64,000 nt of DNA, taken from positions 32,001 to 96,000 of IMG/VR virus record IMGVR_UViG_3300027963_000048; one strand, given 5' to 3'. The DNA comes from a virus. The notes below the pieces were generated by a model. The model did no database searches. It was not told where the DNA came from and was given only the letters and a program-made list of their open reading frames with translations. Position numbers and translations under genes: made by a program. This document shows, one piece after another, positions 37,247 through 56,070 of the stretch (position 1 is its first letter; each line of letters starts with the position of its first letter).

Positions 37247-38350
37247 TTAGACGTACTTCTTTGTGATAGCATGAACATACTGATGACCCATACCAGCCCT
37301 TAAAATCGGCGGCACATGAATAGTCGCGTTATTCTCCACATCTCTCATCGCTGCGTGAATTGCATTAAACGCAGTCTTATCACGTTCAGACCGTGCCATC
37401 TCAACAGTAGCCAAAGCCATCGGAATCATGCACTCTGGCATACCGGTCTTTTCGGTAGTATAGCAAGCAGCCATAGCCGTTGTAACGGCATGAGGATTAC
37501 TAGCGCAATCCTCAAAAGCAGTAATTAACATCCTACGACAAATATAAGCCGGATCCTCACCACTAGAAAGCCACTTAGCTAACCAATAAATTGCAGCATC
37601 CACATCACTATGCTGAATACTCTCCTGGTAACAGTGGGCCAAATCAAAATGATCATTGCCACTAGAATCGAAGCATAAATTCTTATGTGGCATCGCTACG
37701 TCTAATGCCGCACAAGTGATATGGCCGTCCTCGCAGAGGATCTCGACCAGAGTCTCTAACACCAAAACCAACTTCCGCGCATCCCCACTGCAACGATTAA
37801 TTAAAGACTTAGCTGCATCTACTTCTATCTTGACTGCTTTCCCGCTAGACTTGTAGTAATCCTTAACTCGATGGATTAACTTAACCAATGCTGCGTTATC
37901 TAAAGGCTTCGTCTCCTGCACCAGACAGCGAGAAAGCAACGCCTTATTCACAGCAAATCGTGCGGATTCGACAGTCAGGCCGATCAGCGTCACCTCGTTA
38001 TTTTCAATCGCTGGCAGCAGGATATCCTGAACGTTCTTAGACCAGCGATGGATTTCATCCACTAAAACGATCGTGCGCTTCTCGGAAGCTGCGGCTTGCT
38101 TTAAGACAGCCTTAAGCTCCTTTGTGCCGTCCGCAGTCGCATTCATCTTAGCAAAAGCGCAGTCCGTGTCGTTAGCCAACGCAAACGCTATGCTCGTTTT
38201 ACCGGTACCAGGAGGACCCCAAAGCAGCACGTGCTGCAGACGTTTGCCCTCGGCCATCTTGCTAAAGATCATGCCGGGCCCTACAAGATGATCCTGGCCT
38301 AAGACCGCAGATAACGTTTGCGGTCTGAGTACTGTCGCTAAGCAATTCAT
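37247..38350 (-). CDS. rarA: Replication-associated recombination protein A (RarA/MgsA AAA+ ATPase)
   Basis: LA..LRP..L....GQ.HL, WGPPGTGKT, VDEIHR, ALLSRC, GDAR, SD.DAA.YWL, GEDP.YI.RR. Confidence 0.92.
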   Translation of the reverse strand: MNCLATVLRPQTLSAVLGQDHLVGPGMIFSKMAEGKRLQHVLLWGPPGTGKTSIAFALANDTDCAFAKMNATADGTKELKAVLKQAAASEKRTIVLVDEIHRWSKNVQDILLPAIENNEVTLIGLTVESARFAVNKALLSRCLVQETKPLDNAALVKLIHRVKDYYKSSGKAVKIEVDAAKSLINRCSGDARKLVLVLETLVEILCEDGHITCAALDVAMPHKNLCFDSSGNDHFDLAHCYQESIQHSDVDAAIYWLAKWLSSGEDPAYICRRMLITAFEDCASNPHAVTTAMAACYTTEKTGMPECMIPMALATVEMARSERDKTAFNAIHAAMRDVENNATIHVPPILRAGMGHQYVHAITKKYV

Positions 38351-38436
38351 AAATAGCCAATCTGTAAAAATTTATTAAACGAAGGCACGAAACCTTGATC
38401 CTAGCGTTAGACTAGACTAGTTGATATCGCTTTTGA

Positions 38437-38691
38437 TCAATTGGGCTTCCTGATCAATTGGGCATCCACTAGTCTAGTCTTAATCAGTTGATAAAGATCG
38501 GGATCAGAGAGCTCCGCCTGCAGCACTTTGAATTCTTCGATACTAAAAACTGATGACGAGTAATCAAAACGCATACACTGAAAGGCATCACTGCCAATAC
38601 GAACATGCCAGACTTCATCGGGCCGCAATTCTCCAAGTATTCCAGTAATGAAATCAGCACACTTACAAGTAACATCATCGACAATCATCAT
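38437..38691 (-). CDS. Hypothetical protein
   Basis: ORF in a minus-strand run. Confidence 0.4.
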   Translation of the reverse strand: MMIVDDVTCKCADFITGILGELRPDEVWHVRIGSDAFQCMRFDYSSSVFSIEEFKVLQAELSDPDLYQLIKTRLVDAQLIRKPN

Positions 38692-38694
38692 ATC

Positions 38695-38886
38695 TCACTT
38701 TTCATTAGCCTTAGCCTTCTGCATAACAATCGTAGGTTTGGCAGTAGGTTTAGCAACCAAAACAGGCTTAGCCTGCCTAGGCGACCTAACCAGCAATCCA
38801 GTCAATAACCCTAATGAATGCACGAACAAGGTCGTAAACACTATAATCAACATGGTAGTAGTCTGATCAGCGGATAAAACAGGCAT
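38695..38886 (-). CDS. Small membrane protein
   Basis: GGAGG RBS, one TM helix. Confidence 0.5.
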   Translation of the reverse strand: MPVLSADQTTTMLIIVFTTLFVHSLGLLTGLLVRSPRQAKPVLVAKPTAKPTIVMQKAKANEK

Positions 38887-38922
38887 AGCGCACCTCCTAT
38901 TATACCACCAATACAGATGAGA

Positions 38923-39219
38923 TCAACTTCCCCTTATAACCCAGTATGCAAACCGACATAACAACCAACCTACCGCCAAAACACCCAAGAGCATGAAAAA
39001 CGCCTTAGCCAATCCGAAGTGAGCGATAGCGTACACGATCCAGACGAATGGCGCCAGAGCCGCAGCGCAAGCGCAAGCAACAAGCGCTATCACTAAAGCC
39101 GACCCATAGAACCATACAGTAACAAGACTTCCTACCATAAATAGGCGTGTGCCTGCAGCTTCAAGCTGCTCATAAGAACCAGGATTGCCACGCCTATCAT
39201 TAACGCTTTGCCAACTCAT
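38923..39219 (-). CDS. Membrane protein
   Basis: Two or three hydrophobic segments. Confidence 0.55.
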   Translation of the reverse strand: MSWQSVNDRRGNPGSYEQLEAAGTRLFMVGSLVTVWFYGSALVIALVACACAAALAPFVWIVYAIAHFGLAKAFFMLLGVLAVGWLLCRFAYWVIRGS

Positions 39220-39221
39220 AC

Positions 39222-39488
39222 CTAACTCCCAACGTGCTTAATAAGACTGCCTAGTAGCCACTTACTACCTTTGGCAGTAATCACATATCGTTGAGAAATG
39301 CCATTTCGCTCCAGCACCTTGCGAATTCCACCAGCAGGCAGATGAGGTTTTATAACCGAGACCAGACCATCACGACGCAAACGCCATAGGTACGTCGGTA
39401 CCGACACCGATCTCAGTGATCGCGCCAAATCAGTAGCTGTGAAACTGCCATCAGTTAACTTTGCAAGAATCTTAACTCGTAAATTCAT
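39222..39488 (-). CDS. Winged-helix DNA-binding protein
   Basis: ILAKL....TATDLA...YL.RLRRDGLV...RYVITAKG. Confidence 0.6.
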   Translation of the reverse strand: MNLRVKILAKLTDGSFTATDLARSLRSVSVPTYLWRLRRDGLVSVIKPHLPAGGIRKVLERNGISQRYVITAKGSKWLLGSLIKHVGS

Positions 39489-39623
39489 CTCAGCCCTCCA
39501 AGAATTAAAGTGAATTGAACCGATAACCCGTGGCAGTATTTATGGTTCGTAGCAATACCATTTCCCAGCAGCTTGCAATCTGTTACACTGCCGAGGACGA
39601 TAACATTCAAAGGAGATAAGACG

Positions 39624-40946
39624 ATGGCTACGATAGCGACGATTAAAGAAGCTGTGACCCTGTGTGCCAAGGCGAAAATAACCGCCTTCATTTGGGGAGA
39701 TAGAGGACTCGGAAAGTCGAGCCTTGTTAAGCAAATGTGTGAAACTGGCAAAATGGGCTTTATCGATTTTAGAGCTTCGCAAATCGAAGCAAGTGATCTC
39801 CGAGGACTACCGGACAAAGAAGACGGTAGAACGGTATACCGGCCGCCAGCAGACCTGCCCACAGGCGATCTCGACGAAGAACAATTCCAATTGCTAGTAA
39901 CTACCACCAGCCACGACATGATTACTAAACGCATCGAAGCGTTTCCCGAAGGCACCAAAATTAGCGACGAACAATTGGCAGATATGCAAGCATTCGAACG
40001 ACAAGCAGCGACAGATAGACTAGCATATCGACGTAATAAAGGCATTCTCTTCCTAGACGAAGTAAACCGAGCACAAGACGACGTAACCCAAGCTATATTT
40101 CAATTAGTCCTAGACCGTAGGATCGGCCAGTATATCTTACCGGATGGTTGGAGTATCGTCTGCGCAGGTAACTTCATGGAAGGTTATCAAGTGTCGGGAT
40201 TCAGCGACCCAGCTTTCGTCAATCGCTTCTGCCACTTAATATTATCAGGAGGTCAAAGTACCTACGACGAATGGATCGAATTTATGATGTCAAAGTACGG
40301 ATCAAGCTGCCAATCTATCGTCGACTTCACGGCAAATGACATCAAATACCTAGATGGCGACCTTGGAGCAAAAGATCTGGGTTTCAGCATCCAGCCAAGT
40401 CGTAGAACTTGGGAGATGGTCCAAAAAATCGAACTGGTCTGCTCCAAAGAAACGTACACCGATGTTACCAAGCTGGAAGTTATATCTGGTCTTATAGGTA
40501 GAGAAATAGCAATATCGTACACCAGATACAATTGCCCACTAAAGCCGACGCAACTGCTGAAAGACGGCATTAAAGCTCACGCCAAGACCCTATCGTCGCT
40601 AACTCGAAACCAAAGCGTCGGGCTCATGTGGGGTCTAAGCAACGCCGCAAAGGACGACATCGATAAAAAAGCAACCGCCACAATATGCCTCGACTACGCC
40701 GAGCATCTGTTAAAGAACGCCAAAGACCAAGACCTAGTGGTAGCGTTCCTCAGATCTTGCGTCAGGTCAAGCAACAACAACGGAGATAGCAAAAGCAATC
40801 TAGCTACCGCCGCACTCACCAACATAAAACTAGCCAAAATGTTCGCAGAAGCCACCAAAACCAAGCCCACATTCCTGAATCATTTACACGACAGACCAGA
40901 ACTGCAAAAAATGGTGTCGGAAGCCGCATGGGGCTCTGCCAACTAG
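39624..40946 (+). CDS. MoxR/AAA_5-type ATPase
   Basis: WGDRGLGKS, DLRGLP, LFLDEVNRA, QLVLDRRIG, AGN, DPA..NRF, PSRRTW; AAGGAG RBS. Confidence 0.88.
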   Translation: MATIATIKEAVTLCAKAKITAFIWGDRGLGKSSLVKQMCETGKMGFIDFRASQIEASDLRGLPDKEDGRTVYRPPADLPTGDLDEEQFQLLVTTTSHDMITKRIEAFPEGTKISDEQLADMQAFERQAATDRLAYRRNKGILFLDEVNRAQDDVTQAIFQLVLDRRIGQYILPDGWSIVCAGNFMEGYQVSGFSDPAFVNRFCHLILSGGQSTYDEWIEFMMSKYGSSCQSIVDFTANDIKYLDGDLGAKDLGFSIQPSRRTWEMVQKIELVCSKETYTDVTKLEVISGLIGREIAISYTRYNCPLKPTQLLKDGIKAHAKTLSSLTRNQSVGLMWGLSNAAKDDIDKKATATICLDYAEHLLKNAKDQDLVVAFLRSCVRSSNNNGDSKSNLATAALTNIKLAKMFAEATKTKPTFLNHLHDRPELQKMVSEAAWGSAN

Positions 40947-41046
40947 AGCTAAAGAACCAAACGTATCAGGAGGATACAATGGTATTTTGGACAGTGCTAG
41001 CAATCTGCATCTTACAAGACATACTTACTAACAAGGACGTTACACA

Positions 41047-41394
41047 ATGAAAGAGACAATATTCATAGCTAGAGCAGTCACCTGCGCTACAATCATCACG
41101 GTAAACTACATAGACCACATCGATAAAACGATGAGCACCTACCTAGCCATCCAAGAACTAAACGCAGCCTGGATGGCAATGGAATGGCTACAAGCAACAC
41201 TCAAAAGCGGCCAAAAAGACGTAGTTAGCGACACCATAATCCCCGGTATCGCAACGCTACTTACCTTTGTAAAAAACACAAGTATCCTACTCATCCTCCT
41301 CACCACAGGATGCATAAAAACCCTTGAAATCCAAGGAAACGGCACCCCAACCCACATTAACGCTAACGCAAGCATTACCGCCCTCACATGGTAA
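41047..41394 (+). CDS. Hypothetical protein
   Basis: 115 aa ORF in the operon. Confidence 0.45.
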   Translation: MKETIFIARAVTCATIITVNYIDHIDKTMSTYLAIQELNAAWMAMEWLQATLKSGQKDVVSDTIIPGIATLLTFVKNTSILLILLTTGCIKTLEIQGNGTPTHINANASITALTW

Positions 41395-41412
41395 TAAACA
41401 AAGGAGCACAAC

Positions 41413-42618
41413 ATGCAAGCACACGAAAAATTGATGAACGCCCGATGCCGCCTCATCACCAGAGAACCCTTCTACGGCTCATTCGCCATGGGACTCACAT
41501 ACCAACCATACGACTTCCCCAACATGCAAGAGGAAGCTAAAACCATAGCAGTACGCATGATGTCCACCGGCAACATCGACATCGTATACTATCCCAATTT
41601 CATAGACAACCTAACCATAGAAGAATGCTACGGAGTCATAATGCACGAAATCGAACACGTCATACGACTCCACTGCCTCAGAGGATCCACCCTACATCAA
41701 ATGCAATACAATATCGCCGCCGACATGACAGTAAACGGCGTAAAAAGAAACCCACGAGTCGGCTACCCAACAACCAGCCTAGGATCAGGAGAATATGGCG
41801 GACGAACCCTCCCACACGAAGACAAACTCGTATGGATCCCCCTAGGATGGCCAGAAGACGCAAGCGCAGAAGAATACTACAAACGACTCACCAACCAAGC
41901 ACAAGACTGCAAAAAACACGGCAAAAACAAAGACCAACACCCAAAATGCACATGCACCCAAGGCCAAACACTAGACAACCACGACATCTGGCAACAAAGC
42001 GACATAAGCGAAGACGAAGCCAGACAAATAATCAAAGAAATGACAAACCAAGCTATCACCAGAAACCAAGGCAAATACCCAAGCCACCTCACAGAAGCAA
42101 TAAAAGAACTATCCACACCAAAAATACGATGGCGCGAACTCCTACGCCGCTACATAGGCCAACACCTAGGCAACAAACGATACACCCACAGCCGCCGCAA
42201 CAGACGAACCGACCAATTCGGCATCAAAGGCACAAGCCACCACGCAGCCGCCACAGTCAACATCATCATCGACACAAGCGGAAGCATAAACCAAAAAGAC
42301 CTAGCCACATTCTTCGCCGAAATCGACACAATATCAAGCAAAACCAAAACACACATCCTACAATGGGACATGCAATACCAGGGCTACACCCAATACCGAA
42401 GAGGAGACTGGAAAAAAATAAACATCAACGGCAGAGGAGGAACCGACATGGCAACACCATACGAATGGCTCGAAAACAACAACCTCATCGCAGACCTACA
42501 AATACTCCTAACAGACGGACACACCAACTGGGCCCCACCCAAACCATACCCATCAATAGTCATCATCACCACAAACCAAAAAGGACCAACATGGGGACAC
42601 AACATCCACATCAACTAA
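41413..42618 (+). CDS. DUF2201-type metallopeptidase + vWA-like domain protein
   Basis: HEIEH zincin motif, NIAAD..VN, WRELLR, IDTSGSI MIDAS-like motif, GRGGTD, LTDG. Confidence 0.88.
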   Translation: MQAHEKLMNARCRLITREPFYGSFAMGLTYQPYDFPNMQEEAKTIAVRMMSTGNIDIVYYPNFIDNLTIEECYGVIMHEIEHVIRLHCLRGSTLHQMQYNIAADMTVNGVKRNPRVGYPTTSLGSGEYGGRTLPHEDKLVWIPLGWPEDASAEEYYKRLTNQAQDCKKHGKNKDQHPKCTCTQGQTLDNHDIWQQSDISEDEARQIIKEMTNQAITRNQGKYPSHLTEAIKELSTPKIRWRELLRRYIGQHLGNKRYTHSRRNRRTDQFGIKGTSHHAAATVNIIIDTSGSINQKDLATFFAEIDTISSKTKTHILQWDMQYQGYTQYRRGDWKKININGRGGTDMATPYEWLENNNLIADLQILLTDGHTNWAPPKPYPSIVIITTNQKGPTWGHNIHIN

Positions 42619-42620
42619 CA

Positions 42621-42857
42621 ATGCACACACCAACAATAAACTACATCACCCAAATCCTCCAACAATACAGAGGAACCAAACCATACGTCTACTACTTCAC
42701 ACAACACACCACAAAATCCCACTTCACCCTAACCATTAAAACACCAACCCACACACAAAAGATCAACGGCAACCAACTGCCAATAGAAAACCACCAACAA
42801 ACAGAACAAATGATACAACAACTCATAGACCACCCGATAAATAACCACACAACCTAG
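42621..42857 (+). CDS. Hypothetical protein
   Basis: ATG right after the vWA stop; the real part of the 41625 shadow ORF. Confidence 0.4.
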   Translation: MHTPTINYITQILQQYRGTKPYVYYFTQHTTKSHFTLTIKTPTHTQKINGNQLPIENHQQTEQMIQQLIDHPINNHTT

Positions 42858-43090
42858 GAGCATAAGAATGACTAAACCCAATAGTGATGAAATCGCTAAA
42901 ATTCTGATTTCAATGACCATTACAGCACCGATTGCATTGATTATAATCATCAATCTCTGGAAACTGGCATATCTTAGCCTTATGTGGTAAGCAGATGACT
43001 GAGATTAAGCTAGACAAACACGAATGGTGGCTATGATATGCTGCAAAAAATGCGGAATGATCAAAGGTACCATGCAAAGGCAATGTTAAA

Positions 43091-43438
43091 ATGACCACTA
43101 AAGAGATATACGATACCTATCTAGCACCAATACTACACGAAATCCTACATCCAGAATATACCCATGAATATCACATCGATGATTTAGATCAATTCGAATA
43201 TGTATCACTAACGCTTAAATCCAATTCAAACATCCCCATAGGCTTCATAGAACTATCAAAAATAGACATCACGACAGATCACACGGTTTTACCCAGTCTA
43301 ATTAAAAATCTAGCTATCTTCAACCATCGGCCTGCTGTTTTCAGCTCAATCGACATCAGAACAGCACTCACCCACAAATTCCACACTTATCAACGAAGCT
43401 CATACCTGTCACAACAAAAACACAAAGGTACCAAATAA
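43091..43438 (+). CDS. Hypothetical protein
   Basis: 115 aa ORF. Confidence 0.45.
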   Translation: MTTKEIYDTYLAPILHEILHPEYTHEYHIDDLDQFEYVSLTLKSNSNIPIGFIELSKIDITTDHTVLPSLIKNLAIFNHRPAVFSSIDIRTALTHKFHTYQRSSYLSQQKHKGTK

Positions 43439-43626
43439 CAAAAAAATGGACAAAACCAACCACCACAAAGGATCCCCAACAATCAACGGAAAGAACGACC
43501 ACAACCAACCAGATACAATAAACAAAAGGAAAACCAAATAAACACAATAAAAACATAGCACTACCAACTCACCTCATCATAAATAATCAAACAACTAACC
43601 CACCCGACCACCAAAAAGGAAGACAT

Positions 43627-43758
43627 ATGACCACAACAAAGAAAAAAACAGACTGCGCAGAATACCAAATCAAACAAGGCATAAGCTGCAAAAACTGCCC
43701 CACATGCCACCAAGAAGCATACCAACTTATAGAAAAGCTACAAGCAACGACACAATAA
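43627..43758 (+). CDS. Small Cys-rich protein (not in ORF track)
   Basis: AAGGA RBS; C..CKNCPTC. Confidence 0.35.
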   Translation: MTTTKKKTDCAEYQIKQGISCKNCPTCHQEAYQLIEKLQATTQ

Positions 43759-43835
43759 CAGACCACGAAAAAGAAATCGAAAGACTACAATACGACCTCT
43801 AATACAATAAGCTAAACTAAGCAAAGGAACTAAAA

Positions 43836-44114
43836 ATGAACATAAAAAACCAAGACACCAAAAAAGACCAAAAAACCCCAATCATAAAAACATACTACCT
43901 AGACAACCGGCAAGACATACTCGAAATCGCATTTGACGAAAAAACCGTAGCAATCGCAAATCCCGAAGGAATATGGGTAACAGATTCAGCCCAAAACATC
44001 AGAAAAATCTCAGCACTCCTCACCAAATACGCAGATATGATAGAAACAAAACCCAAAGACCCGGAAGCCAACATACTACCACCAAGAGACTGCACCAGCT
44101 ACATAGGATGGTAA
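43836..44114 (+). CDS. Hypothetical protein
   Basis: AAGGA RBS; last gene before the skew flip. Confidence 0.5.
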   Translation: MNIKNQDTKKDQKTPIIKTYYLDNRQDILEIAFDEKTVAIANPEGIWVTDSAQNIRKISALLTKYADMIETKPKDPEANILPPRDCTSYIGW

Positions 44115-44392
44115 TGCGAGAAAAAAAGGAAAAATTAAAAAAGTTAGCGGGAACGGGAGAAGGAACTCAGTGGCCATCTCATCGCCTCGGTGAAATCAGA
44201 AGAAAATGAAGTGAGGAAAAAGAATAACACAAAAATGTTCGTTTATAGCCCGTTAATTCTCAGAACATTCGACTCTTATAAGTGCAGCCCGATAATATTC
44301 TATAAACCCCGTCGTATAGAATAATAATCCATCCCTTTGGAGGCTGCGAAAATACATGACAGGTATCTTATTTTTAATCGTCGATAGTTCCG
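44115..44392. other. Strand-skew switch region: candidate replication origin or genome terminus
   Basis: Plus strand is A+C-rich to the left and G+T-rich to the right; AT-rich and non-coding. Confidence 0.5.
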
Positions 44393-44713
44393 ATGAGTAG
44401 TTTAATTTTCGTCGGGGAGTACCTCAGGTCACTCCTGGAGAGTCGGGTGGCTCATCTTACTTTTCACATCCATGGCGTCTATAGCCCCCTACCTAGGATG
44501 GTATGTGTCTCTTTAATTGATCCGCTGTGTCGGGTCGATTATTCAGATGATGCGTCACATGTGTTGATTGTTTTGTTTTTTGATTGGGTGAAGTTCCATT
44601 CGAGTTCAATTTCGTGTGCGCTATGTGAGATTGATTTTTCTAGTGATGACAGTGTGGTTGATTCTGTTTTACGTTTTGGTGTGTTTCATTCGGTGCCGAG
44701 GGGAGTAGGCTAA
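44393..44713 (+). CDS. Hypothetical protein
   Basis: 106 aa ORF. Confidence 0.35.
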   Translation: MSSLIFVGEYLRSLLESRVAHLTFHIHGVYSPLPRMVCVSLIDPLCRVDYSDDASHVLIVLFFDWVKFHSSSISCALCEIDFSSDDSVVDSVLRFGVFHSVPRGVG

Positions 44714-44846
44714 TCTGGGGGCGGTGTCGGTAGATGTATCTATTGCCTATTTGGTCGCGGGTCCAGTCGCCGTTTGGGTCTTCTATCCAGAAGGGGCTGT
44801 TGATGTCGGTGTTTGGGTTGATTGTATATCGCATTTTATTGGGCCA

Positions 44847-44886
44847 CTGGGGAACTTCTGCTTGACACCATTCGCCTTCGGCAGTT
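44847..44886. repeat. 40-bp dispersed direct repeat, copy 1
   Basis: CTGGGGAACTTCTGCTTGACACCATTCGCCTTCGGCAGTT, identical at 47239-47278. Confidence 0.9.
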
Positions 44887-44974
44887 GTTTATGGGATGAC
44901 AGGAAATGGTGAAAACATCCCTCCCTACCCCAGTGGTTATTTTATTTATGTGGTTATGCGGGGCCGGGTTTGCC

Positions 44975-45300
44975 GTGGTGTTTTTCCAGCCAGCATTTGG
45001 TTTGCTCTTGTCTCTGTGTTTCCTTTGTGGAACGGAGGTCGTAACTGATGTGAAGTTGGTTTGGTTTGGTTTGGTTTGGTTTGGTTTGGTTTGGTTTGGT
45101 TAGGTTGGATGGTATATTTACCGATTGCGGATTTATGCTGTGGTGTTTTTCCAGCCAGCATTTGGTTTGCTCTTGTCTCTGTGTTTCCTTTGTGGAACGG
45201 AGGTCGTAACTGATGTGAAGTTGGTTTGGTTTGGTTTGGTTTGGTTTGGTTTGGTTTGGTTAGGTTGGATGGTATATTTACCGATTGCGGATTTATGCTG
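44975..45300. repeat. Tandem duplication (~165 + ~160 bp) containing (TTGGT)9 and (TTGGT)8
   Basis: Copies start at 44975 and 45140 and are identical except for one pentamer. Confidence 0.9.
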
Positions 45301-45342
45301 TCACATAGTAAAGTTACTGCTTAATTTTTAAGGAGTTTGGTT

Positions 45343-47289: not shown

Positions 47290-48027
47290 TCAATATCGAT
47301 GCCTGCCGGTTTGCACTCGGGTTTTGGCCATCCAGGTGGTGTTGTTGTTAACTTGGTGGCCGTAGGTGAGTTTGCCTTGCATTTGTTTAAATACTAGACC
47401 TTCTATGAGTGGTTGTTGATATGGTTTGTTTAGGGTGAGGATTTGATCCCAGGTTTGTTGCCATTTTTTTGGTGGGATGAGATCTGGTATGATGATGTTG
47501 TCTGTAGCTTTGGTGCCTAGGTTGAACACGCCAGCGGAGTTTTTGAATTCGTATGTTTCCTCTGTGGAACATGTGTTGCGTAGGAGGTCGTATCTTTCTT
47601 GATATGTGGTGTCTATGAGGTGGTTTCCATTTAACACTAGGATATCCCAGATGGCGAAGTGATCTTTGATAGCTTTGTGTTTGCAATCTATGACACCTCC
47701 GTCAATTAGCGTCCATGAGTCGGGATCTATAGCTAGGCGTTCGCGAAGTTCGTGAAATTGTGGCTCTAGCCATTCTGGTAGGTTGTAGTCTTTTAGACGT
47801 TCGCCATGTCTGCTCCAAAGTTGCAGTTGGTTATTTGGTAGTAGTTTGTATAGGGTTCTGGTGTCGTTGTATTTTAATTGAGCCTGATAACCTAGAGTGG
47901 CATATAGGTTCATATCTTCTGGTGGGATGGCTTCCTTAGCGCGTGGCGGGAAGATGTATTTGCTCTGTTGTGCGATCATAGGTCGCCCTCCCTTTTTAAT
48001 ATATTCCAATTGAGTATTCATTGCCAT
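47290..48027 (-). CDS. ATP-dependent ligase-type nucleotidyltransferase (adenylation domain only)
   Basis: Motif I AQLKYNDTR, WSRHG, LIDGG (III), IWDIL (IIIa), EGLVFK (IV), WMAK (V); AAGGAG RBS. Confidence 0.7.
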   Translation of the reverse strand: MAMNTQLEYIKKGGRPMIAQQSKYIFPPRAKEAIPPEDMNLYATLGYQAQLKYNDTRTLYKLLPNNQLQLWSRHGERLKDYNLPEWLEPQFHELRERLAIDPDSWTLIDGGVIDCKHKAIKDHFAIWDILVLNGNHLIDTTYQERYDLLRNTCSTEETYEFKNSAGVFNLGTKATDNIIIPDLIPPKKWQQTWDQILTLNKPYQQPLIEGLVFKQMQGKLTYGHQVNNNTTWMAKTRVQTGRHRY

Positions 48028-48070
48028 GGATTCTCCTTCAAATGATAAAATATACGATGGGGAAGTGATC

Positions 48071-48292
48071 ATGTCACCCTTGAATACTATTGTCAGTTAT
48101 AATCCTAGAATAACATGTGGCAAATACCTGGTTGAGGGAGAATTGGATGACTGGTACAGTGATGATGAGATAGCTGGTCAATTGGCTGGCAACCTGTGTG
48201 TTGGTGATGTGGTGAATGTTCAAGGTGGAGCTGTTAAAATTATTCAAATTATTGACCATAAGAGTGGTGTCCGTCGACAATTTATCGAATGA
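48071..48292 (+). CDS. Hypothetical protein
   Basis: AAATATA motif and purine-rich RBS upstream. Confidence 0.4.
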   Translation: MSPLNTIVSYNPRITCGKYLVEGELDDWYSDDEIAGQLAGNLCVGDVVNVQGGAVKIIQIIDHKSGVRRQFIE

Positions 48293-48327
48293 TGTATTAA
48301 ATTAAGAACAAAATTATCTGACGGTTC

Positions 48328-48564
48328 ATGGAGGGATCTATGAGGAAGAATCGCGCTTCTGTCGAATTCGCTTTGCACTATGCAATCTATCGTTTGAATT
48401 ATCATCATGAATCCGGAATGGCAGAAAAGGTGGATAACTTGTTGCGTGAGCTGGCATCCATTGACGCTGATGAGGCCGGCGAGTTCGTGACACGTGATAG
48501 ATTGGAAACTACAAGACAAACTGCTTTGACTATTGTAGAATATGCCAATGGATCGCTTGTGTAG
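48328..48564 (+). CDS. Hypothetical protein
   Basis: GGAGG before ATG 48340. Confidence 0.45.
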   Translation: MEGSMRKNRASVEFALHYAIYRLNYHHESGMAEKVDNLLRELASIDADEAGEFVTRDRLETTRQTALTIVEYANGSLV

Positions 48565-48602
48565 TTAATCTCGTATGTTTCCTCGGTGGAACCATGCGAG
48601 AT

Positions 48603-49151
48603 TTAGTCTAAGTTGTCAAACCAGGACATATCTGGCTCTTCGGATTCTAAATTAAAGTCTGTACCTATAGCTTTTTTCAATGCCATGAGGTCATCTGTGG
48701 CTATTTTCTCGTGATGATCAACGATAGCTTTCACCTTGCCTTTGCGGTTTAATTCTCTTAGACTGTAAGCATTGATTACAGCATCAAGGGTGTGCGGTGG
48801 TGGTGAGTTGTCGCCATGTAGGATGGTGTAGACTCCGTCAGCTGTAAGGCCTACGCGGCCTCGCGGTAGAGCGGTATGTGACATTCCTAGATTTCGTAAG
48901 TTGGTTTTTGGTATTTTCAAATTATATGCTAGGGTTTCTAGTGCTTCAGGCCATATACTGAGGTGCGTAATGTCATCATTGCTATCTTTCTCAAACCATG
49001 GGTAAATGTCCCAATCTATTTGGATACCGTTTTTGGTTTTTTTAACCTCTTTAGGTATCCAATAATATGGTCCTTGTTTTGGTGCGCGACTTTCTTCGAT
49101 AGCCTTTTTTTGGGCTAGTAATGAACTTTTAAGCATGTCATCAATTTTCAT
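48603..49151 (-). CDS. Hypothetical protein
   Basis: AAGGAG RBS; GPYYW, H...W, LPRGRV, DHHE. Confidence 0.6.
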   Translation of the reverse strand: MKIDDMLKSSLLAQKKAIEESRAPKQGPYYWIPKEVKKTKNGIQIDWDIYPWFEKDSNDDITHLSIWPEALETLAYNLKIPKTNLRNLGMSHTALPRGRVGLTADGVYTILHGDNSPPPHTLDAVINAYSLRELNRKGKVKAIVDHHEKIATDDLMALKKAIGTDFNLESEEPDMSWFDNLD

Positions 49152-49191
49152 TGTTATCTCCTTTACATGTATTTTCGATGGTAAATGATCG

Positions 49192-49443
49192 CTAGTCGAT
49201 GATTGTAAGTTCCTCTGGTTTGTAGCCGATTATGAGTACTTCTCCGCATCTGCCTTTCCAGGATATGATAGCGTAGCCGTCTTTTAGCGCGGTGATTGCG
49301 TCTGTTACTGTTTCGGTGACGTCGTCTCCGTTGTATTTTGGTTTTCCATTGGTTTGTCCTACGATTAATGGGCGTATGTCGAACTTGATGAGTGGTTCAT
49401 CGTTTAAGGTTTTCCATAATGCTTTTTTGGTGATCTGGGTCAT
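49192..49443 (-). CDS. Hypothetical protein
   Basis: GGAG RBS. Confidence 0.5.
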   Translation of the reverse strand: MTQITKKALWKTLNDEPLIKFDIRPLIVGQTNGKPKYNGDDVTETVTDAITALKDGYAIISWKGRCGEVLIIGYKPEELTIID

Positions 49444-49595
49444 TGTGATGCTCCGTTTGTGATGTTGTGACTGGCTAATTGTAGCAGGTTTGATATTGTT
49501 TAATAATTATGTGTGTTGTATTGGAGGGTTATTTTTCCTATGTTCGTGGTCTGTCACATCATGCCGGGAAATTCACCAGTACTTGGAGTGATGAA

Positions 49596-50744
49596 ATGAA
49601 CTTTGCAGCTGGCACTGGCTTTGAGTTGCGACCTTATCAGCAGAGGATTATAAAGAAAGTGACAGACATGTTCAAGGGTGAATATGTCAAGAATGACCAG
49701 AAGCAGGTTTATAATAGCGTTGTGATTGAGAGTCCTACTGGGTCTGGTAAGACTTGTATGATGCTTCTTACCGCTAGAGAAATGCAGAAGAGTATTCCCG
49801 GCTTGTATGTTTGTTGGTTTGCTATGCGTCGCAATTTGTTGCGGCAGGCAGCTGAGGAGAATACGCGTCGTGGTGTTGGAGTTGACATTCAGTTCTTTTC
49901 TATGTTTGGGAAAGAATTCGAAGATGTTTTGAGAGCTAAGGCTGAGGGTCGTAAGATCCTTGTGGTGTTGGATGAATATCAGCATGATAGTTGTAATACT
50001 ATGGCTAATATTCACAATGTGATACAGCCTGATTTTGTACTTGGTGGTACTGCTACACCTTACCGTACTGATAGCGCTAGTTTGAGCTATCAGGCGATTG
50101 TGAAGGATGCTGGGATTCATACGTTGATTACTGAGGGTTTTTTGAGTCAGTATGATCATTATTGTATAGAGGATTGGAAGCCTGAGACGGTAGCTCGTCA
50201 TTACTTGGCTGATCGTAGTAAGTGGGGCAAGAGTTTATTTTATTTCGTTAACACGAATTTGTGCCAGGAATTCCATGCGATTTTGCAGGCTAACGGTGTT
50301 GAGTCTGAGGTTGTCACTGCTAATAGTGATGATGAGGCGCAGATAGCTCGGTTTGAGTCTGGTGAGATTGATGTTTTGATTAATTGTATGAAGCTTACGG
50401 AGGGTTTTGATTGCCCTGCTCTTAGAACTGTATGGGTGCGTGATAGTGTGAAGGGTCCAACTGTGCAGATGGGTGGTCGGGTGCTTCGGAAGTTTGGTAA
50501 TTTGCCTGTTAAGCAGATTGTGCAGAGTGTTGCCACACGTGTGCCATTCACTAGGGTTGCTAAGCCTCGCTATCAGACTTTGTTTAAGGATGGTAAGTGG
50601 TCGAGTTTGACTATTAATCCTAAGATGGAGCAGATATCGATTATGAGTCGTGTTGCTTGCGCTAGCGCTATTACTGAGATGCCTCAGTTTATTACCAAGA
50701 ATAAGCGTAAGAAGTCTCGGATCTTTGGAGCTCCTTTGGATTAA
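49596..50744 (+). CDS. SF2 DEAD/DEAH-like helicase (ResIII type)
   Basis: LRPYQ, SPTGSGKT, VLDEYQH, GTATPYR, LTEGFDCP, QMGGRVLR. Confidence 0.9.
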   Translation: MNFAAGTGFELRPYQQRIIKKVTDMFKGEYVKNDQKQVYNSVVIESPTGSGKTCMMLLTAREMQKSIPGLYVCWFAMRRNLLRQAAEENTRRGVGVDIQFFSMFGKEFEDVLRAKAEGRKILVVLDEYQHDSCNTMANIHNVIQPDFVLGGTATPYRTDSASLSYQAIVKDAGIHTLITEGFLSQYDHYCIEDWKPETVARHYLADRSKWGKSLFYFVNTNLCQEFHAILQANGVESEVVTANSDDEAQIARFESGEIDVLINCMKLTEGFDCPALRTVWVRDSVKGPTVQMGGRVLRKFGNLPVKQIVQSVATRVPFTRVAKPRYQTLFKDGKWSSLTINPKMEQISIMSRVACASAITEMPQFITKNKRKKSRIFGAPLD

Positions 50745-50821
50745 GTATTATCCTATAATATCTTTTGTGTTTCGATATTGTCATATAGTATTGTGGTTTT
50801 GGTGATTTTTAACAAGAGGAG

Positions 50822-51952
50822 ATGATGATGATGACGACTTTTAATTACGTGACCACCAATGTTAAGTCTTTGCGAGCTCACGTTGATGAGCAGCGGACGA
50901 AAACCGGTCGGTTGTTACGCAAGACTTGCGACAAGATTGAGATTGATGGTCAGGCTGCCCATCCGACCTCTAGGTTTTGGAATAGCTTGTATAGCATGTA
51001 CGGGTTCAATGGTGCGTTTTTCAAGTACTTCAGCCATGATGAAGTGTTCACGCGTCTCCAGGAGCGTGATGATGATAGGGAGATTCGGGTGTGTGTGGAG
51101 AGCGATAATGGGGTTGATAAGTTGCTTGCTTGTACAAATCCCAATTCTGGTCTGATCACTTATGATGAGTTGATGGATTTGACTAGCACCTTGGGTGGTG
51201 ACAAGGTTCGTTATGCCAATGGTGTGGTTGAGTCGTGTCACAAACCTGCGGTTGGTGCTGGTGATGTGTCGATTGGTGGTGATCAGTTTACACCACATGT
51301 TACGCTTTCAGCACCTATCGATGGTTATGGGTTGCCTAGTTTGTATTTGAGCTTGCTGCGTCAGGTGTGTTCGAATGGGTTGGTTGCTATGGATAAGGCT
51401 TTCCAGAGTCGGATTTCGGTTGGTAAGAAGGATGGCAATGTTTCTTATAGCATTGCTCGCCATTTGCAAGGTTATGGTAATGATGAGGGTTATTCTGCGA
51501 TCAGGCAGCGGATTTCGTCGTCGCAGACTTCTAGAGCGTCGTTGTTTGAGGTGACTGATCTTTATAACGCTATCAGCCGTGTTAAGGAGAATATTTCTAG
51601 TGTTGCACCAGAGGATACCGCTGGTTCGATGGTGCAGCAGGAATACGGGATGAGCAATCGGTTTAGCGTGTCGAGATCTTTGGTTAATCTGGCTGGTGAT
51701 GTGTCGAGCTTGTATGGTTTAGCGTCCACTAGCATGGTTAATACTAAGAAATTGAAGACGTTGCCAGCTAAGTGTAGTGTGTATGACTTGATCAATTTTG
51801 CTACTGAGGTAGCTACTCACCATTCTGATACTACTGCTGCTCGGCGTTTGCATGGGTGGGTTGGTAGTTTGATTAGTAACGAGTATGATCTTGAGGGTGC
51901 TAAGATGACTTTGGATAGCAATGGCTTCAAGGAATTACACCTTAGTGCATAA
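50822..51952 (+). CDS. DUF932-like protein
   Basis: IDG.G....Y....RQVCSNGLV; S.YDLINF.TE.A.H. Confidence 0.55.
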   Translation: MMMMTTFNYVTTNVKSLRAHVDEQRTKTGRLLRKTCDKIEIDGQAAHPTSRFWNSLYSMYGFNGAFFKYFSHDEVFTRLQERDDDREIRVCVESDNGVDKLLACTNPNSGLITYDELMDLTSTLGGDKVRYANGVVESCHKPAVGAGDVSIGGDQFTPHVTLSAPIDGYGLPSLYLSLLRQVCSNGLVAMDKAFQSRISVGKKDGNVSYSIARHLQGYGNDEGYSAIRQRISSSQTSRASLFEVTDLYNAISRVKENISSVAPEDTAGSMVQQEYGMSNRFSVSRSLVNLAGDVSSLYGLASTSMVNTKKLKTLPAKCSVYDLINFATEVATHHSDTTAARRLHGWVGSLISNEYDLEGAKMTLDSNGFKELHLSA

Positions 51953-52042
51953 TATTTATTGGTTTAGGTGCGAGGGGGATTGCCCTCTCGCACTTTCTTT
52001 GTCACATGTGGTCGGTGGTTCACGTGTTAGGAGGGGTGTGTT

Positions 52043-52534
52043 ATGGCGTTTACTAAGATTTGGGAAGATTTTAAAGCGTGCAAGGAGCCGTATTTTCGAC
52101 TCGAATTGCCTAAGCCGTCGATGGAGTTAACTGCTGCTGCGCCTCCTCGTATTAGGAAGATACATGAGGAAGCACCTAATTTGACGATTGTGGAAATTAA
52201 GACTGATTTGCTGGATGATGGGCGGTTTGCATGTCTGAAGGCAATGCGCGATTTGGATGATCAGAGTGCTTTTGGATTGCTGTTGACGTGGTGGAGTATG
52301 TTCGCTTTGGGCATTGGGATGAAGCAGGTTATCCCTATTGATAGGCTCTCTGGAAAGGGGTTGGCAGAGGATTTACATCAATGTGGTTTTGCTAATGTGG
52401 TTAAAAGAAAGAAATCGGGTGCTGGATTGTACACTTATCATAGTGTACTGTCCAAGGTGGGGAAGCATACTAAAATTATTGGTGTGGATATTGAAGCTGC
52501 CGATTGCCCTTGTAAATTTTCAAGGAGTGCGTAA
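52043..52534 (+). CDS. Hypothetical protein
   Basis: AGGAGG RBS and promoter element. Confidence 0.6.
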   Translation: MAFTKIWEDFKACKEPYFRLELPKPSMELTAAAPPRIRKIHEEAPNLTIVEIKTDLLDDGRFACLKAMRDLDDQSAFGLLLTWWSMFALGIGMKQVIPIDRLSGKGLAEDLHQCGFANVVKRKKSGAGLYTYHSVLSKVGKHTKIIGVDIEAADCPCKFSRSA

Positions 52535-52785
52535 TGCCTAGTTTTAAGTTGACTATTGGTGTTGAGGTGGATGTTGATAATGTGATGGATCCTACTACTA
52601 GTTTGAATGTTATTAACAATAGGATCTATGATAAATGTATTGCTCGGGATGATGTAGAGTTCGATGGTATGGGTTTTACAAATGGGCAGTGCGAATTCGG
52701 GTTCACAGTTGAAGCGGTTGAATTGGCTGATGCTTTGAGTGTGGTTGTTGAATGTATTAGGAATTCTAACATTGGAGGTGTATGA
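52534..52785 (+). CDS. Hypothetical protein
   Basis: AAGGAG RBS. Confidence 0.55.
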   Translation: MPSFKLTIGVEVDVDNVMDPTTSLNVINNRIYDKCIARDDVEFDGMGFTNGQCEFGFTVEAVELADALSVVVECIRNSNIGGV

Positions 52786-52997
52786 TGGGTAGAGCTAAGG
52801 TTGGTGGCGTAGGTGCACGTGATAATCGTGAATCTATTTTACTGCGGGTTGAGCCGTCTGTGGCTGCTTTGATTCGTGAGGCTGCTAGGCGTGAGGAGCG
52901 TACTCTTACTGCTGTAATGACGCGTGCTTTGCGATCTTATTTGAAGACCGAGCATGGTCCTGCTGCTGTCGATGAATATTGTAATTCTGCAGGGTGA
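52782..52997 (+). CDS. Ribbon-helix-helix DNA-binding protein
   Basis: SILLRVEPSVAALIREAARREERTLTAVMTRALRSYL. Confidence 0.65.
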   Translation: MMGRAKVGGVGARDNRESILLRVEPSVAALIREAARREERTLTAVMTRALRSYLKTEHGPAAVDEYCNSAG

Positions 52998-53088
52998 TAG
53001 GGGATTTCTTGCTCATCTGATTTCTGTCACAATTGGTTGGTGAGGGAGAACGGTTTTTCCTCACCAAATGCGAAAGCGGGAGGTTGCG

Positions 53089-53730
53089 ATGAGTTTCTTG
53101 AATAATCTAAAGTCCAAGTCGGTTAACAAGGCTACTAAGACTGGTGCAAAGAAGGGCACCAGTTGGATGCTAACTGAGGCAGCTCATATTGACGCGGTCA
53201 ACGAGATCGTGAAGCTCGACCGTGAGGTTGATGCTATCAATGCCAAGATTAATGTTCGGAAGAACATTCTTAAGGGTGTTGCTCAGGAAAAATGGCTTTC
53301 TGATTATGTCCGTGAATCTGGATCTCCAGAATCTCCGATGAAGCTGTTGACTCCTGAGGGAGAGAGCTTGACCTATGTGGTGCAGGATCGCAGCGGCCAG
53401 GTGAAGGTCTCTGATGATCTTCGTGAGCAGCTCGTAGTTGAGATTGGGTCGGATGCGGTTGATCGTCTCTTGTACGAGGAGACCACGTTCAGCTTCAATC
53501 GTGTGGCGTTGATGAACCCACAGATTGAGAAGGCTGTTAGCAAGGCCCTTGAGGCCTTGGTTGAGCAGGTGGCCTCTATCGATCCTGAGATTTCGTTGTT
53601 GGATGTCGAGCAGAAGGTGGCTTATAAGAAGCTTGATAATTTGACTGAGATTTGTGGTCATGATAGGGGTGCTATCTCCCGATTCGTTGAATTAATCGGC
53701 AGTGCTTTGGTCCGATATTTGAAGGTTTAA
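53089..53730 (+). CDS. Hypothetical protein
   Basis: GGAGG RBS and promoter element. Confidence 0.65.
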   Translation: MSFLNNLKSKSVNKATKTGAKKGTSWMLTEAAHIDAVNEIVKLDREVDAINAKINVRKNILKGVAQEKWLSDYVRESGSPESPMKLLTPEGESLTYVVQDRSGQVKVSDDLREQLVVEIGSDAVDRLLYEETTFSFNRVALMNPQIEKAVSKALEALVEQVASIDPEISLLDVEQKVAYKKLDNLTEICGHDRGAISRFVELIGSALVRYLKV

Positions 53731-53821
53731 GGTCGTCCCTTGATGGGGTGGGGGGATTTCTCTCCCACCCCTTTATTGTCACATCGAATTGTCAGTTTGA
53801 TAATAATAAGGAGGCGCAACG

Positions 53822-54025
53822 ATGGAAGCTGCTGTTTGGGCTAATCAGTTGGATTGTAACAGCATTATCAAGCACCTTGATGTTGGTGCGTTGTTTAAAT
53901 TTCCAAATGATGATATGGTGATGTTATATCACGGGCGCGGGTGGTATTCAAATCCGACCCATCCCAGGAATCCTTTGATTCGGTTTAAGACTGGGATGAA
54001 TACTGGAGTTATTAGAATTAATTAA
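53822..54025 (+). CDS. Hypothetical protein
   Basis: GAGG RBS and promoter element. Confidence 0.55.
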   Translation: MEAAVWANQLDCNSIIKHLDVGALFKFPNDDMVMLYHGRGWYSNPTHPRNPLIRFKTGMNTGVIRIN

Positions 54026-54039
54026 TTGGAGGGTGTGCG

Positions 54040-54294
54040 ATGGCTGTTAATGCGGTGAAGGTTACTGATCGTGTTTCTGGAATTGCTGGCATGAATGCCA
54101 AGTTGAAAGAGGCGTTGGCTTCCGTGTGGGTTTTGGAAGGGCACGATGGCTTTTGGTCTTATCAAGTTGGCGCCAAGCCTGATACTACTCCACCAAGTGG
54201 TGCTGTGTTGGGGAATGTGGGTGGTGGTATGGTTGCCTTATTTGTTGAGAATCAGGTATTTAATCATTTGGTTGAGATTGGTAGTGGTGCGTAG
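54040..54294 (+). CDS. Hypothetical protein
   Basis: GGAGG RBS. Confidence 0.55.
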   Translation: MAVNAVKVTDRVSGIAGMNAKLKEALASVWVLEGHDGFWSYQVGAKPDTTPPSGAVLGNVGGGMVALFVENQVFNHLVEIGSGA

Positions 54295-54360
54295 TAGGGA
54301 TTTCTCTCCTCTCTCAACCCTGTCACAATTTTGTGTGGTGGTAATAACAAGGAGTGAGAA

Positions 54361-54567
54361 ATGACAACTTACATGATAGTTCGAAGATATCAGAATGCCT
54401 GTAGGGGGGGGGTGGTAGAGCGTGGTTTGAGCCTTGAGGAGGCTCAGGCTCACTGCCGTAACCCAGAAACGTCCTCTAAAACTGCCACATCCTCATGGGC
54501 TGTGACATTAACTGAGAAACGTGGCCCGCGGTTCGACGGGTACGAGGACGAGGGTTCGTTTCTATAA
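54361..54567 (+). CDS. Small phage protein, paralogue of 58638
   Basis: GLSLEEAQAHCRNPETSS.TA...FDGY. Confidence 0.7.
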   Translation: MTTYMIVRRYQNACRGGVVERGLSLEEAQAHCRNPETSSKTATSSWAVTLTEKRGPRFDGYEDEGSFL

Positions 54568-54572
54568 GGAGT

Positions 54573-54758
54573 ATGGTGATGTGGCAAGATTGGTCAGCGA
54601 TCCTCAATAGTGGGGATCGCACTGCGATTATCAGTTGGCTTGCCTGGAATGATCCAAGTGGGGTTTATCTGGATAGTGATTGCGAGCTTGAAGGCTTGCC
54701 TTGTCTAGATATTGATGCTGCTAGGGATTATATGCGTCGGGCATTGGAGAATGGATAG
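54573..54758 (+). CDS. Hypothetical protein
   Basis: AAGGAG RBS; WLAWNDP.GVY.D. Confidence 0.55.
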   Translation: MVMWQDWSAILNSGDRTAIISWLAWNDPSGVYLDSDCELEGLPCLDIDAARDYMRRALENG

Positions 54759-54824
54759 TGGGGGGGGGATTTTCATCCTCTTCTGGTTGTGCCACAATAT
54801 CGTGTCCTTTTTTGGAGGTGAGCG

Positions 54825-55031
54825 ATGATAAAGAAGCAATCGTTGTCGGTGTGGCGTAAGCAGTTTGCTGCTGAATACTTGCGTCGCGTCGGTATTACCA
54901 TTGAGGATGGTGGTGCTGATGGGGTTGTTGAAAATTATTTTTCTGATAGCTTCACGCCAGCGGAGGCGGTGGAGCGTGAGATAGAGAAGTATGATTTGGC
55001 TGATATGTCTAACATGTTTGGGTGGATGTAA
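54825..55031 (+). CDS. Hypothetical protein
   Basis: GGAGG RBS and promoter element. Confidence 0.6.
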   Translation: MIKKQSLSVWRKQFAAEYLRRVGITIEDGGADGVVENYFSDSFTPAEAVEREIEKYDLADMSNMFGWM

Positions 55032-55051
55032 ACACTTAGAAAGGGGTTAAT

Positions 55052-55327
55052 ATGTCATCTGATACTGCTGGTAAGTGTGTTGAAACAATGTCGAATGTTT
55101 CGCAAGATGATTTTGAGGGTTTGTTTGAATGTGAGGATGTGTTTCGTAGTGATATAGATAAAGCGATACAGTGTGTTTATTATTTTGATGGAGTTGGTGG
55201 TGAGGTGGCTCATTATTTTCCGTCGTTGAAGAGTGGCACGATTTTTAAAGTGCCACGGATTTGGCATGAGTCTTTTAAACCCAATCTTACTTTCGTTAGG
55301 AAATGGTTTGAAGGCGAGGAGATATAA
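55052..55327 (+). CDS. Hypothetical protein
   Basis: 91 aa ORF. Confidence 0.5.
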   Translation: MSSDTAGKCVETMSNVSQDDFEGLFECEDVFRSDIDKAIQCVYYFDGVGGEVAHYFPSLKSGTIFKVPRIWHESFKPNLTFVRKWFEGEEI

Positions 55328-55387
55328 ATATATTCTCCCATGTCGTTTGGGCTGTCACAATTTGATGTAACCAAAGGAGATTTTGCG

Positions 55388-55738
55388 ATGAAAGTGATGA
55401 ATCACGCTGAATACCAAAAGAACCTCCAGAAGAAAAGCTGGAGTGCGTTGTGGTACACTGCAAAGGACGCAATGGAGGCTGCGCAGGCCTACCCTGAGGG
55501 AGAGAACGCGTCGTATTACCTCGATGAGGTCAATTATTGCCTGGATGAGATTGCCAGGCGTAACAGGCTTGAATTGAAGGTGAAGGTGAAAGATCAAGAC
55601 ACCATTCACACGATCTACTCCGACTTGTCGAAGGTGGGTTTTGTGATGAGGGAGATTTACCCTACTGGTCACTTGGTCAGTTGCAGAGCTTTCGATAAGG
55701 CTGCTGCTACTGAGTTGTTGTGTGGTGGGCTCAAATAG
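55388..55738 (+). CDS. Hypothetical phage protein
   Basis: AAGGAG RBS; L.Y..KDA.EA....P...N..YY.DEV.YC..E. Confidence 0.6.
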   Translation: MKVMNHAEYQKNLQKKSWSALWYTAKDAMEAAQAYPEGENASYYLDEVNYCLDEIARRNRLELKVKVKDQDTIHTIYSDLSKVGFVMREIYPTGHLVSCRAFDKAAATELLCGGLK

Positions 55739-55839
55739 TGGGGAATCTCTCGCACCCCTTTCTTTAGTGCTTTGTGTGCAAATGGTACGATTACTGCGGA
55801 TTTGTAGATTAGGGTAAAGCGTCGCTTTGATTTGTTGCG

Positions 55840-56070
55840 ACAGTTGCGTGAGCTTGATGCGTAACGGCACCCAGTTGCCGAGCCACCTTGTACTTGTGGG
55901 GTGGAGCTGGAGGTATAGCCCCTGAGCCTTACGTTGTTCGGTGCAATCACCTGTGCCTTATATCGGGGGATGGTGTTGGCGCGAACAGACTCTCCGTCTG
56001 TTACAAGCCCTAGGTTAGGTGCGTACTGCGTTGGTATTAAACACTAAACCTAGATTCAAGTAATTGAGAG
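55840..56070 (+). ncRNA. Candidate structured ncRNA (HEARO/omega-RNA-like features)
   Basis: Non-coding gap with stems GGCA/TGCC, CCACC/GGTGG, AACAGAC/GTCTGTT, CTAGGTT/AACCTAG. Confidence 0.3.

Follow-up and report, generated by a model that had tools for sequence, protein, structure and literature searches.

The skew N-domains of the human genome are bordered by replication origins (PMC3320577), and the paired gradients of editing by APOBEC3 in human immunodeficiency virus (HIV) are anchored at priming sites, the polypurine tracts (PMC1635257). GRINS are repeats of more than 500 bp at more than 80% identity with mean absolute GC and TA skews above 0.15 that are correlated; they are tied to gene conversion and encode functional proteins, and their mechanism is unknown (PMC8256042). 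Here, we describe an extreme flip of strand composition in a virus, found in IMG/VR record IMGVR_UViG_3300027963_000048. The window, i.e., the whole stretch of 64,000 bp that was analyzed, comprises bases 32001-96000 of this 115,614-bp record, and genome coordinates given below are those of the record. At about 44.1-44.5 kb of the window, the plus strand changes from A+C-rich to G+T-rich. We read this flip as the trace of a mutation process that acts asymmetrically on the two strands and is anchored at a fixed intergenic site, most likely a site from which DNA synthesis starts outward, and assign this reading a probability of roughly 0.4. A literature search returned no description of such skews in phages.

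With replication skew (bacterial ori/ter, human N-domains) the locus shares a G+T-rich outgoing 5′-to-3′ strand, a location at synonymous sites, and independence of gene direction. As in human N-domains, sharp upward jumps are followed by gradual declines, and the profile between the two sites of one relative (G003, introduced below) resembles these domains (PMC3320577). Unlike replichore-wide replication skew, the phage skew is local, saturating (up to 99% at four-fold sites), and clustered at multiple sites that differ between relatives. It also resembles the strand-displacement gradients of vertebrate mitochondrial DNA (PMC4182315) and HIV APOBEC3 editing (PMC1635257), since in all of them a transition-only, one-strand bias with sharp discontinuities is graded from priming sites. 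In those systems, however, one strand is exposed genome-wide, whereas in the phage both strands are affected, on opposite sides of the site. The phage further differs from them in the comparable depletion of A and C at skewed sites, in that the dinucleotide context of residual C and A carries no TC/CC (APOBEC-like) signature, and in its large double-stranded DNA genome.

Results

The skew flip is real and lies far outside chance. The keto (G+T) baseline of the plus strand is 0.497 ± 0.029 per kb over genome 1-66 kb, and the skew is neutral over genome 1-68 kb. At window 41-44 kb, keto content per kb is 0.32, 0.27, and 0.29, and from 44 kb on it is 0.56, 0.64, 0.54, 0.68, 0.57, and 0.63, which corresponds to z scores of −5.9 to −7.6 on the left and +4.5 to +6.1 on the right. 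The keto jump across the junction amounts to 0.414, versus a standard deviation of 0.037 and a maximum of 0.10 in the null distribution (window 1-36 kb). The change of sign falls within a non-coding zone of ~1.2 kb (44115-45344), where keto content passes from 0.35 through 0.49 to 0.70 in all three codon phases; along the 300-bp, three-phase profile, most of the signal sits in one codon phase. A preliminary description of this DNA proposed cumulative GC and AT skew over the full genome as a check; the cumulative keto skew of the contig, a 32% fragment, has its minimum at genome ~76 kb. The line counts of that description (49 of 60 letters A+C in the line starting at 42721, 50 of 60 G+T in the line starting at 47161) are exact.

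While keto content swings between 0.27 and 0.68, purine content remains at 0.45-0.56 throughout. Because it is steady near 0.5, the asymmetry is of the A-to-G/G-to-A and C-to-T/T-to-C kind only (transition type). The GC skew of the left arm (−0.29 to −0.38) goes together with an A-T skew of +0.42 to +0.53 (TA skew of −0.41 to −0.53), and the signs reverse on the right. The strand leaving the junction 5′ to 3′ carries an asymmetry of the C-to-T plus A-to-G type, with origin-type polarity, as had been proposed initially.

In the left arm (38000-44114), the plus strand becomes ever more A+C-rich towards the flip, with keto content falling from 0.45 to 0.22-0.29 (Spearman’s rho = −0.88, P = 2e-7; slope of −0.025 per kb, decay length of ~4.5 kb). 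The right arm (45345-62970) has a plus-strand keto content of ~0.62 that declines slowly to below 0.5 at ~62 kb, with a slope of −0.005 per kb that is five times shallower (rho = −0.47, P = 0.004). The preliminary claim that the effect is strongest near the junction therefore holds clearly for the left arm but only weakly for the right one. A second, smaller upward jump of the plus strand (keto 0.44 to 0.67) is seen at 62971-63618, where an unskewed gene (62570-62971) gives way to a strongly G+T-rich one (62974-63618).

Genes on both strands allow the skew to be read at four-fold degenerate sites; gene identities come from Pfam and PHROGs, and the ligase call is weak, slightly below the Pfam cut-off. 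On the left, a minus-strand clamp-loader/MgsA-like AAA+ ATPase (37247-38350) has a sense-strand G+T fraction of 0.68, which means an A+C-rich plus strand. It is followed on the plus strand by a MoxR-like AAA ATPase (39573-40946) with a moderate skew (sense A+C of 0.61) and by a DUF2201 metallopeptidase/VWA gene (41413-42618) with 99% A or C at four-fold sites (A 0.53, C 0.46, G 0.00, T 0.01; n = 159). On the right, minus-strand genes reading towards the flip (46988-48072) have sense A+C fractions of 0.77-0.86, including a ligase-like nucleotidyltransferase (47290-48072; 0.77, i.e., G+T on the plus strand), at which the skewed codon phase is that of the third codon positions of this minus-strand open reading frame (ORF). 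The plus-strand genes for a superfamily-2 DNA helicase (49509-50744) and a DUF932-like protein (50822-51952) have sense G+T fractions of 0.82 and 0.84. Plus- and minus-strand genes in each arm share the plus-strand bias, and so the skew follows the DNA strand and not the gene, which upholds the earlier statements that gene direction is irrelevant and that the cause is not transcriptional.

The recognizable genes at the main flip converge. The plus-strand genes end at 44114 with small ORFs (43091-43438, 43627-43758, and 43836-44114) whose reading direction is towards the flip and whose sense strands are A+C-rich; these ORFs gave no family match. Minus-strand genes fill most of 45667-49443, with two short plus-strand ORFs (48026-48564) inside this otherwise minus-strand block. 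Sense strands are A+C-rich on either side of the main flip. A further site, near genome 101 kb, has diverging genes with G+T-rich sense strands, and its DNA polarity is the same as that of the main flip.

Protein composition follows the skew, as the preliminary description had claimed. In the DUF2201 gene, 95% of NNY codons end in C and 96% of NNR codons end in A, and the residues K/N/T/P/H/Q make up 35.9% of the protein, versus 28.3 ± 1.7% in 120 homologues. A DUF2201 relative that is 70% identical shows no biased composition.

Two contigs from other metagenome samples, L005 and L006, are 93-99% identical to this region. L006 (9.7 kb) crosses the junction and flips at the same place, and L005 (4.3 kb) ends slightly inside the flip zone. 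Since these independent assemblies match the region, the junction is not chimeric. The two outcomes named beforehand as speaking against the preliminary interpretation, i.e., that the skew tracks the coding strand genome-wide or that the junction is a chimeric misassembly, were not what we found: the skew does not follow the coding strand, and the junction recurs in the assemblies of other samples. A 476-bp segment (window 42613-43089), which is swapped for a different 1031-bp segment in the two near-identical strains, is probably a recent insert. It holds ~230 bp of ordinary composition (42860-43090) inside the extreme arm, and this ordinary stretch within an exchanged segment indicates that new DNA arrives unskewed.

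Unskewed DNA is also seen inside the G+T-rich arm, where a minus-strand ORF of 91 amino acids (46289-46564) lies beside an unskewed gene (45879-46292). This ORF has no Pfam or PHROGs match; its sequence appears to resemble Panacea/SocA-like antitoxin domains, and together with its neighbor it may be a recent arrival.

The record is 32% complete (CheckV) and comes from an uncultured T4-like jumbo phage of ~355 kb. Its portal and large terminase are T4-like, and its replication genes include a DnaE-type polymerase III alpha fragment and a clamp loader, with no A- or B-family polymerase in this 32% fragment; the contig ends do not overlap. Near relatives among cultured phages were not found, with distant protein matches only. 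DUF2201 and the helicase, each used as a single-protein query against IMG/VR, gave no matches, but alignment-based scans did find relatives of 354-408 kb that have portal, terminase, capsid-region, and replication genes in common and whose polymerases comprise split DnaE genes and a small PolA-like gene. We compared this record (G000) with G001 (complete, 355,825 bp), G002 (whole, 354 kb), and G003 (408 kb, of which 180-220 kb was read). No B-family polymerase was found in these four. The protein-primed polymerase family (PF03175) gave no match in them either, and control genomes also lacked a match above the cut-off (one sub-threshold Escherichia coli match). The proposed check of polymerase type thus yields DnaE-type and PolA-like enzymes and no B-family enzyme, while for the protein-primed family the control was silent.

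Large jumps have a single polarity across genomes. A scan of adjacent 1-kb windows in four genomes recovered 11 jumps of at least 0.22, all of them from A+C to G+T and none in reverse (binomial P ~ 0.001), with 2-4 jumps per genome. In this contig, they are located at genome 76.35, 95.2, 101.15, and 107.05 kb, and the skew declines gradually from one to the next; the overall shape is a sawtooth in which keto content rises abruptly and returns slowly. The flips of G001, G002, and G003 are intergenic, lie at non-homologous sites, are sharp within 100-400 bp, and have decay lengths of 2.3-5.1 kb. In G001, keto content is ~0.5 over ~300 kb and 0.30-0.40 (patchy) at 18-33 kb, followed by a flip at 33.5 kb with keto content of up to 0.88 and a smooth decay to 0.5 by 45 kb. 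G003 flips at 183.3 and 197.55 kb, the latter sharply (within 100-200 bp) and symmetrically, and between the two sites the skew declines smoothly through zero. G002 flips at 277.15 kb and at 240.5 kb, where keto content goes from 0.14 to 0.63 over a span of 400 bp; at the four-fold sites of its plus- and minus-strand genes, the plus strand has a keto content of ~0.6 in most 20-kb bins, with a weaker bias at 260-340 kb and values below 0.5 directly before the 240.5-kb flip. Such a near-genome-wide bias with a drop before 240.5 kb is what would be expected for largely unidirectional replication from the 240.5-kb site. Where the skew of an AT-rich relative is maximal, GC content has risen towards the fraction of purines, a pattern that transitions alone would give.

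Flip placement varies relative to the same genes. In G001, the flip lies upstream of MoxR, with DUF2201 at 88% G/T in position 3; in this record, DUF2201 and the helicase flank it; and it is found past the helicase block in L020, a 294-kb metagenome contig in which MoxR and DUF2201 are saturated (third-position keto content of 0.12-0.18). Further relatives that share these genes, examined locally, are without skew.

At least five small paralogues with the common motif ITP..D..I.....LT...KDYKI form a tandem array on the minus strand of G003 at 198.4-200.0 kb (L107:18428-19969). Among five paralogues on one strand, K/N/T/P/H/Q content rises from 41% to 59% approaching the flip (with T/P/H/Q/N enriched), and judging from these sequences the array is recoded in situ, progressively towards the flip.

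At genome 107089-109116 (L004:7090-9117), a minus-strand gene with 99% A/C at its four-fold sites (n = 358) encodes a 675-amino-acid protein in which a Laminin_G_3 (concanavalin-like lectin) repeat occurs three times. The gene adjoins the unskewed DnaE fragment (105211-106920), and the upward skew jump is located in the gap between the two genes.

The flip zone itself contains two direct repeats on the plus strand (44971-45275; 140 nt, spacing of 165 nt, 96% identical) that end in (GGTTT)8 at 45058-45097 and (GGTTT)7 at 45223-45257, runs that could form two-tetrad G-quadruplexes on this strand. No inverted terminal repeats were found at the junction, where inverted matches are only at chance level (14-27 nt). 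Rfam and tRNA scans of the flip region gave nothing at the junction, and a scan for sigma-70 promoters and terminators gave counts at chance level.

A private promoter-like motif, GGATTT-N17-TGYCAYA, has 19 matches with at most one mismatch at window 51977-62533, versus 0.5 expected. Its copies are plus-oriented at window 52-62.5 kb and minus-oriented at genome 96.9-99.8 kb, so that two cassette arrays converge near genome 95-97 kb. The 21 copies found do not coincide with jumps in this genome. The cassette array in the window also includes a tRNA-Leu gene (anticodon TAA) at 60140-60222, recovered by both ARAGORN and Rfam.

Discussion

That DNA synthesis starts at the anchoring sites is our inference from polarity and shape alone, and the chemistry, too, is inferred. 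In the reading we favor, the outgoing 5′-to-3′ strand on each side would long have gathered C-to-T and A-to-G changes, until synonymous sites saturate (up to 99%) and protein composition is dragged along. The site would be a local replication origin or a priming/D-loop site within a replication and early-gene module. Either the outgoing strand is repeatedly single-stranded, as a displaced strand or lagging-strand template, and becomes deaminated, or it is the nascent product of a synthesis biased towards G·T mispairs. The effect would fade away from the site, on the steep side over 2-5 kb, and several such sites would produce a sawtooth. An origin with long-lived single-stranded DNA, taken as one of several local start sites, is the best mechanistic reading. 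The bidirectional origin of the preliminary description is accordingly retained for its polarity and in its local, start-site version; its whole-genome version is given up, with the skew of G001 covering only ~60 kb of 355.8 kb.

A number of observations weigh against a start site of DNA synthesis. Forks from a true origin should imprint much further than the ~60 kb of 355 kb skewed in G001, and the skew does not extend over whole replichores there or in this record (genome 1-68 kb is neutral), while in G002 it partly does. The arms at the main flip are very unequal. To our knowledge, an intensity of 99% at four-fold sites exceeds any replication skew of a cellular genome. As A and C are depleted alike, polymerase G·T mispairing fits as well as deamination. 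Substitutions between close strains are balanced, 20 versus 20 (three strains, the third of which is not an outgroup, so that the changes are unpolarized), and an ongoing bias is thus not demonstrated. The polarity count depends on a threshold of 0.22 that was set after viewing the data; at 0.15, steps are symmetric, with 13 up versus 12 down. The sites themselves also offer little of what an origin might: no initiator gene or conserved iteron was identified at them, 10 ORFs at flips (G000 at 76 kb, G001 at 33.5 kb) have no Pfam or PHROGs match, no protein, DNA word, or motif is common to the flips of different genomes, and (GGTTT) runs of at least three units are absent from the near-identical strains L005 and L006.

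Somewhat unlikely, in our view, is that the flips could be launch sites of an undescribed, dedicated process of strand-specific editing or biased repair synthesis in giant phages, phage- or host-encoded and unlike ordinary fork asymmetry, that would recode one strand almost entirely over kilobases, perhaps with the same chemistry as GRINS in bacteria. We likewise consider it unlikely that they are recurrent break or nick sites (by homing endonuclease, packaging cut, or recombination hot spot), from which resected gaps would be refilled outward 5′ to 3′ in an error-prone, G·T-biased manner and conversion tracts would decay over kilobases. The kilobase exponential decay and the several intergenic sites per genome that shift between relatives would suit mobile cut sites better than conserved origins, and the region is a cassette-rich module with high turnover. 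The ORFs at the flips, however, hold no nuclease or homing-endonuclease domain, and the genome-wide plus-strand bias of G002 is left unexplained. Moreover, dominant damage to exposed 3′ tails would give the reverse polarity, and the model thus requires misincorporation to outweigh deamination. A GRINS-type process, which would recode genes in an unexplained way, leave correlated GC and TA skews, and pass from repeat to repeat by gene conversion, is improbable. The signature is the same, with correlated skews above 0.15, the third codon position most strongly affected, both signs on one strand within a kilobase, and amino-acid usage shifted, Gly/Val/Cys/Trp against Pro/Thr/His/Gln (PMC8256042). 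But the skewed phage DNA is single-copy, with longest internal contig repeats of 171-179 bp versus the more than 500 bp at more than 80% identity that define GRINS, and a single polarity of large jumps with smooth, point-anchored distance gradients is not reported for them. Selection at the DNA level is more doubtful still. A two-letter strand would be palindrome-free and evade type II restriction, and it might be unfoldable or rich in G/T Chi-like words, so that the composition would be adaptive in an early-entering module. A 99% purge is stronger than typical mutation equilibria, and the non-coding DNA at the flip is skewed too (0.70). Under selection, however, neither a smooth decay from a point nor a single polarity nor a change of sign would be expected. 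The ordinary insert and unskewed neighbors such as the DnaE fragment are tolerated, and relatives with the same genes are without skew.

The preliminary description had also suggested that the junction joins the physical ends of a linear genome, which strand displacement (protein-primed or similar) would copy from either end, and, reasoning from the sequence, the polarity and end-weighted gradients would suit displaced 5′ strands. We now regard this as highly improbable. Unlike the ends of protein-primed linear genomes, the junction is without inverted terminal repeats and is read through by the assemblies of other samples, and relatives have two to three flips each. The polymerases of the family are DnaE-type and small PolA-like enzymes, a B-family or protein-primed polymerase was not found in G000-G003 (with a silent PF03175 control), and a T4-like terminase is present. 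T4-like terminases are associated with headful packaging, which leaves no fixed ends. Equally remote is transcription-associated mutation, in which transcription bubbles or R-loops would leave the non-template strand exposed. The sense strand is indeed G+T-rich in the cassette arrays with the promoter motif and at the genome 101-kb site, but the genes at the main flip read inward with A+C-rich sense strands, the opposite of the prediction; plus- and minus-strand genes of one arm share the plus-strand bias, and the motif copies and the jumps do not coincide. Mosaicism, inversion, or an assembly artefact, by which blocks of different origin or orientation would be joined, is largely refuted as the main cause. 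Composition is patchy at gene scale, e.g., Laminin_G_3 at 0.98 beside DnaE at 0.54, and cassettes are swapped between strains. Yet random joins should give both polarities, where the count is 11 to 0, the flip is reproduced by 93-99% identical assemblies from other samples, and the gradients of G001 and G003 continue smoothly over gene boundaries.

Should DNA synthesis start at the jumps, the sequence of an uncultured giant phage could directly reveal its replication or priming sites at a resolution of 100-400 bp, and this phage family would be a natural system in which to measure single-strand exposure or polymerase bias. Silent sites that are 99% two-letter, together with recoded proteins, distort codon-usage, phylogenetic, and host-prediction methods for these genes. 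Here, a signature like that of bacterial GRINS takes a clear geometric form, a point source with one polarity and decay over kilobases, and this leaves fewer possible mechanisms.

Additional observations

Elsewhere in the record, the plus-strand gene of a class II ribonucleotide reductase (genome 5877-10268) is split by an intein with a LAGLIDADG homing-endonuclease domain. The contig terminus (genome 115.4-115.6 kb) lies inside a tandem repeat array that looks leucine-rich-repeat-coding and is probably the reason for the assembly break. A plus-strand ORF of 393 amino acids at genome 102224-103405 (L004:2225-3406) matches the RuBisCO large-chain catalytic domain (Pfam E = 3e-34) and probably encodes a RuBisCO-like protein, which would be unusual in a phage.

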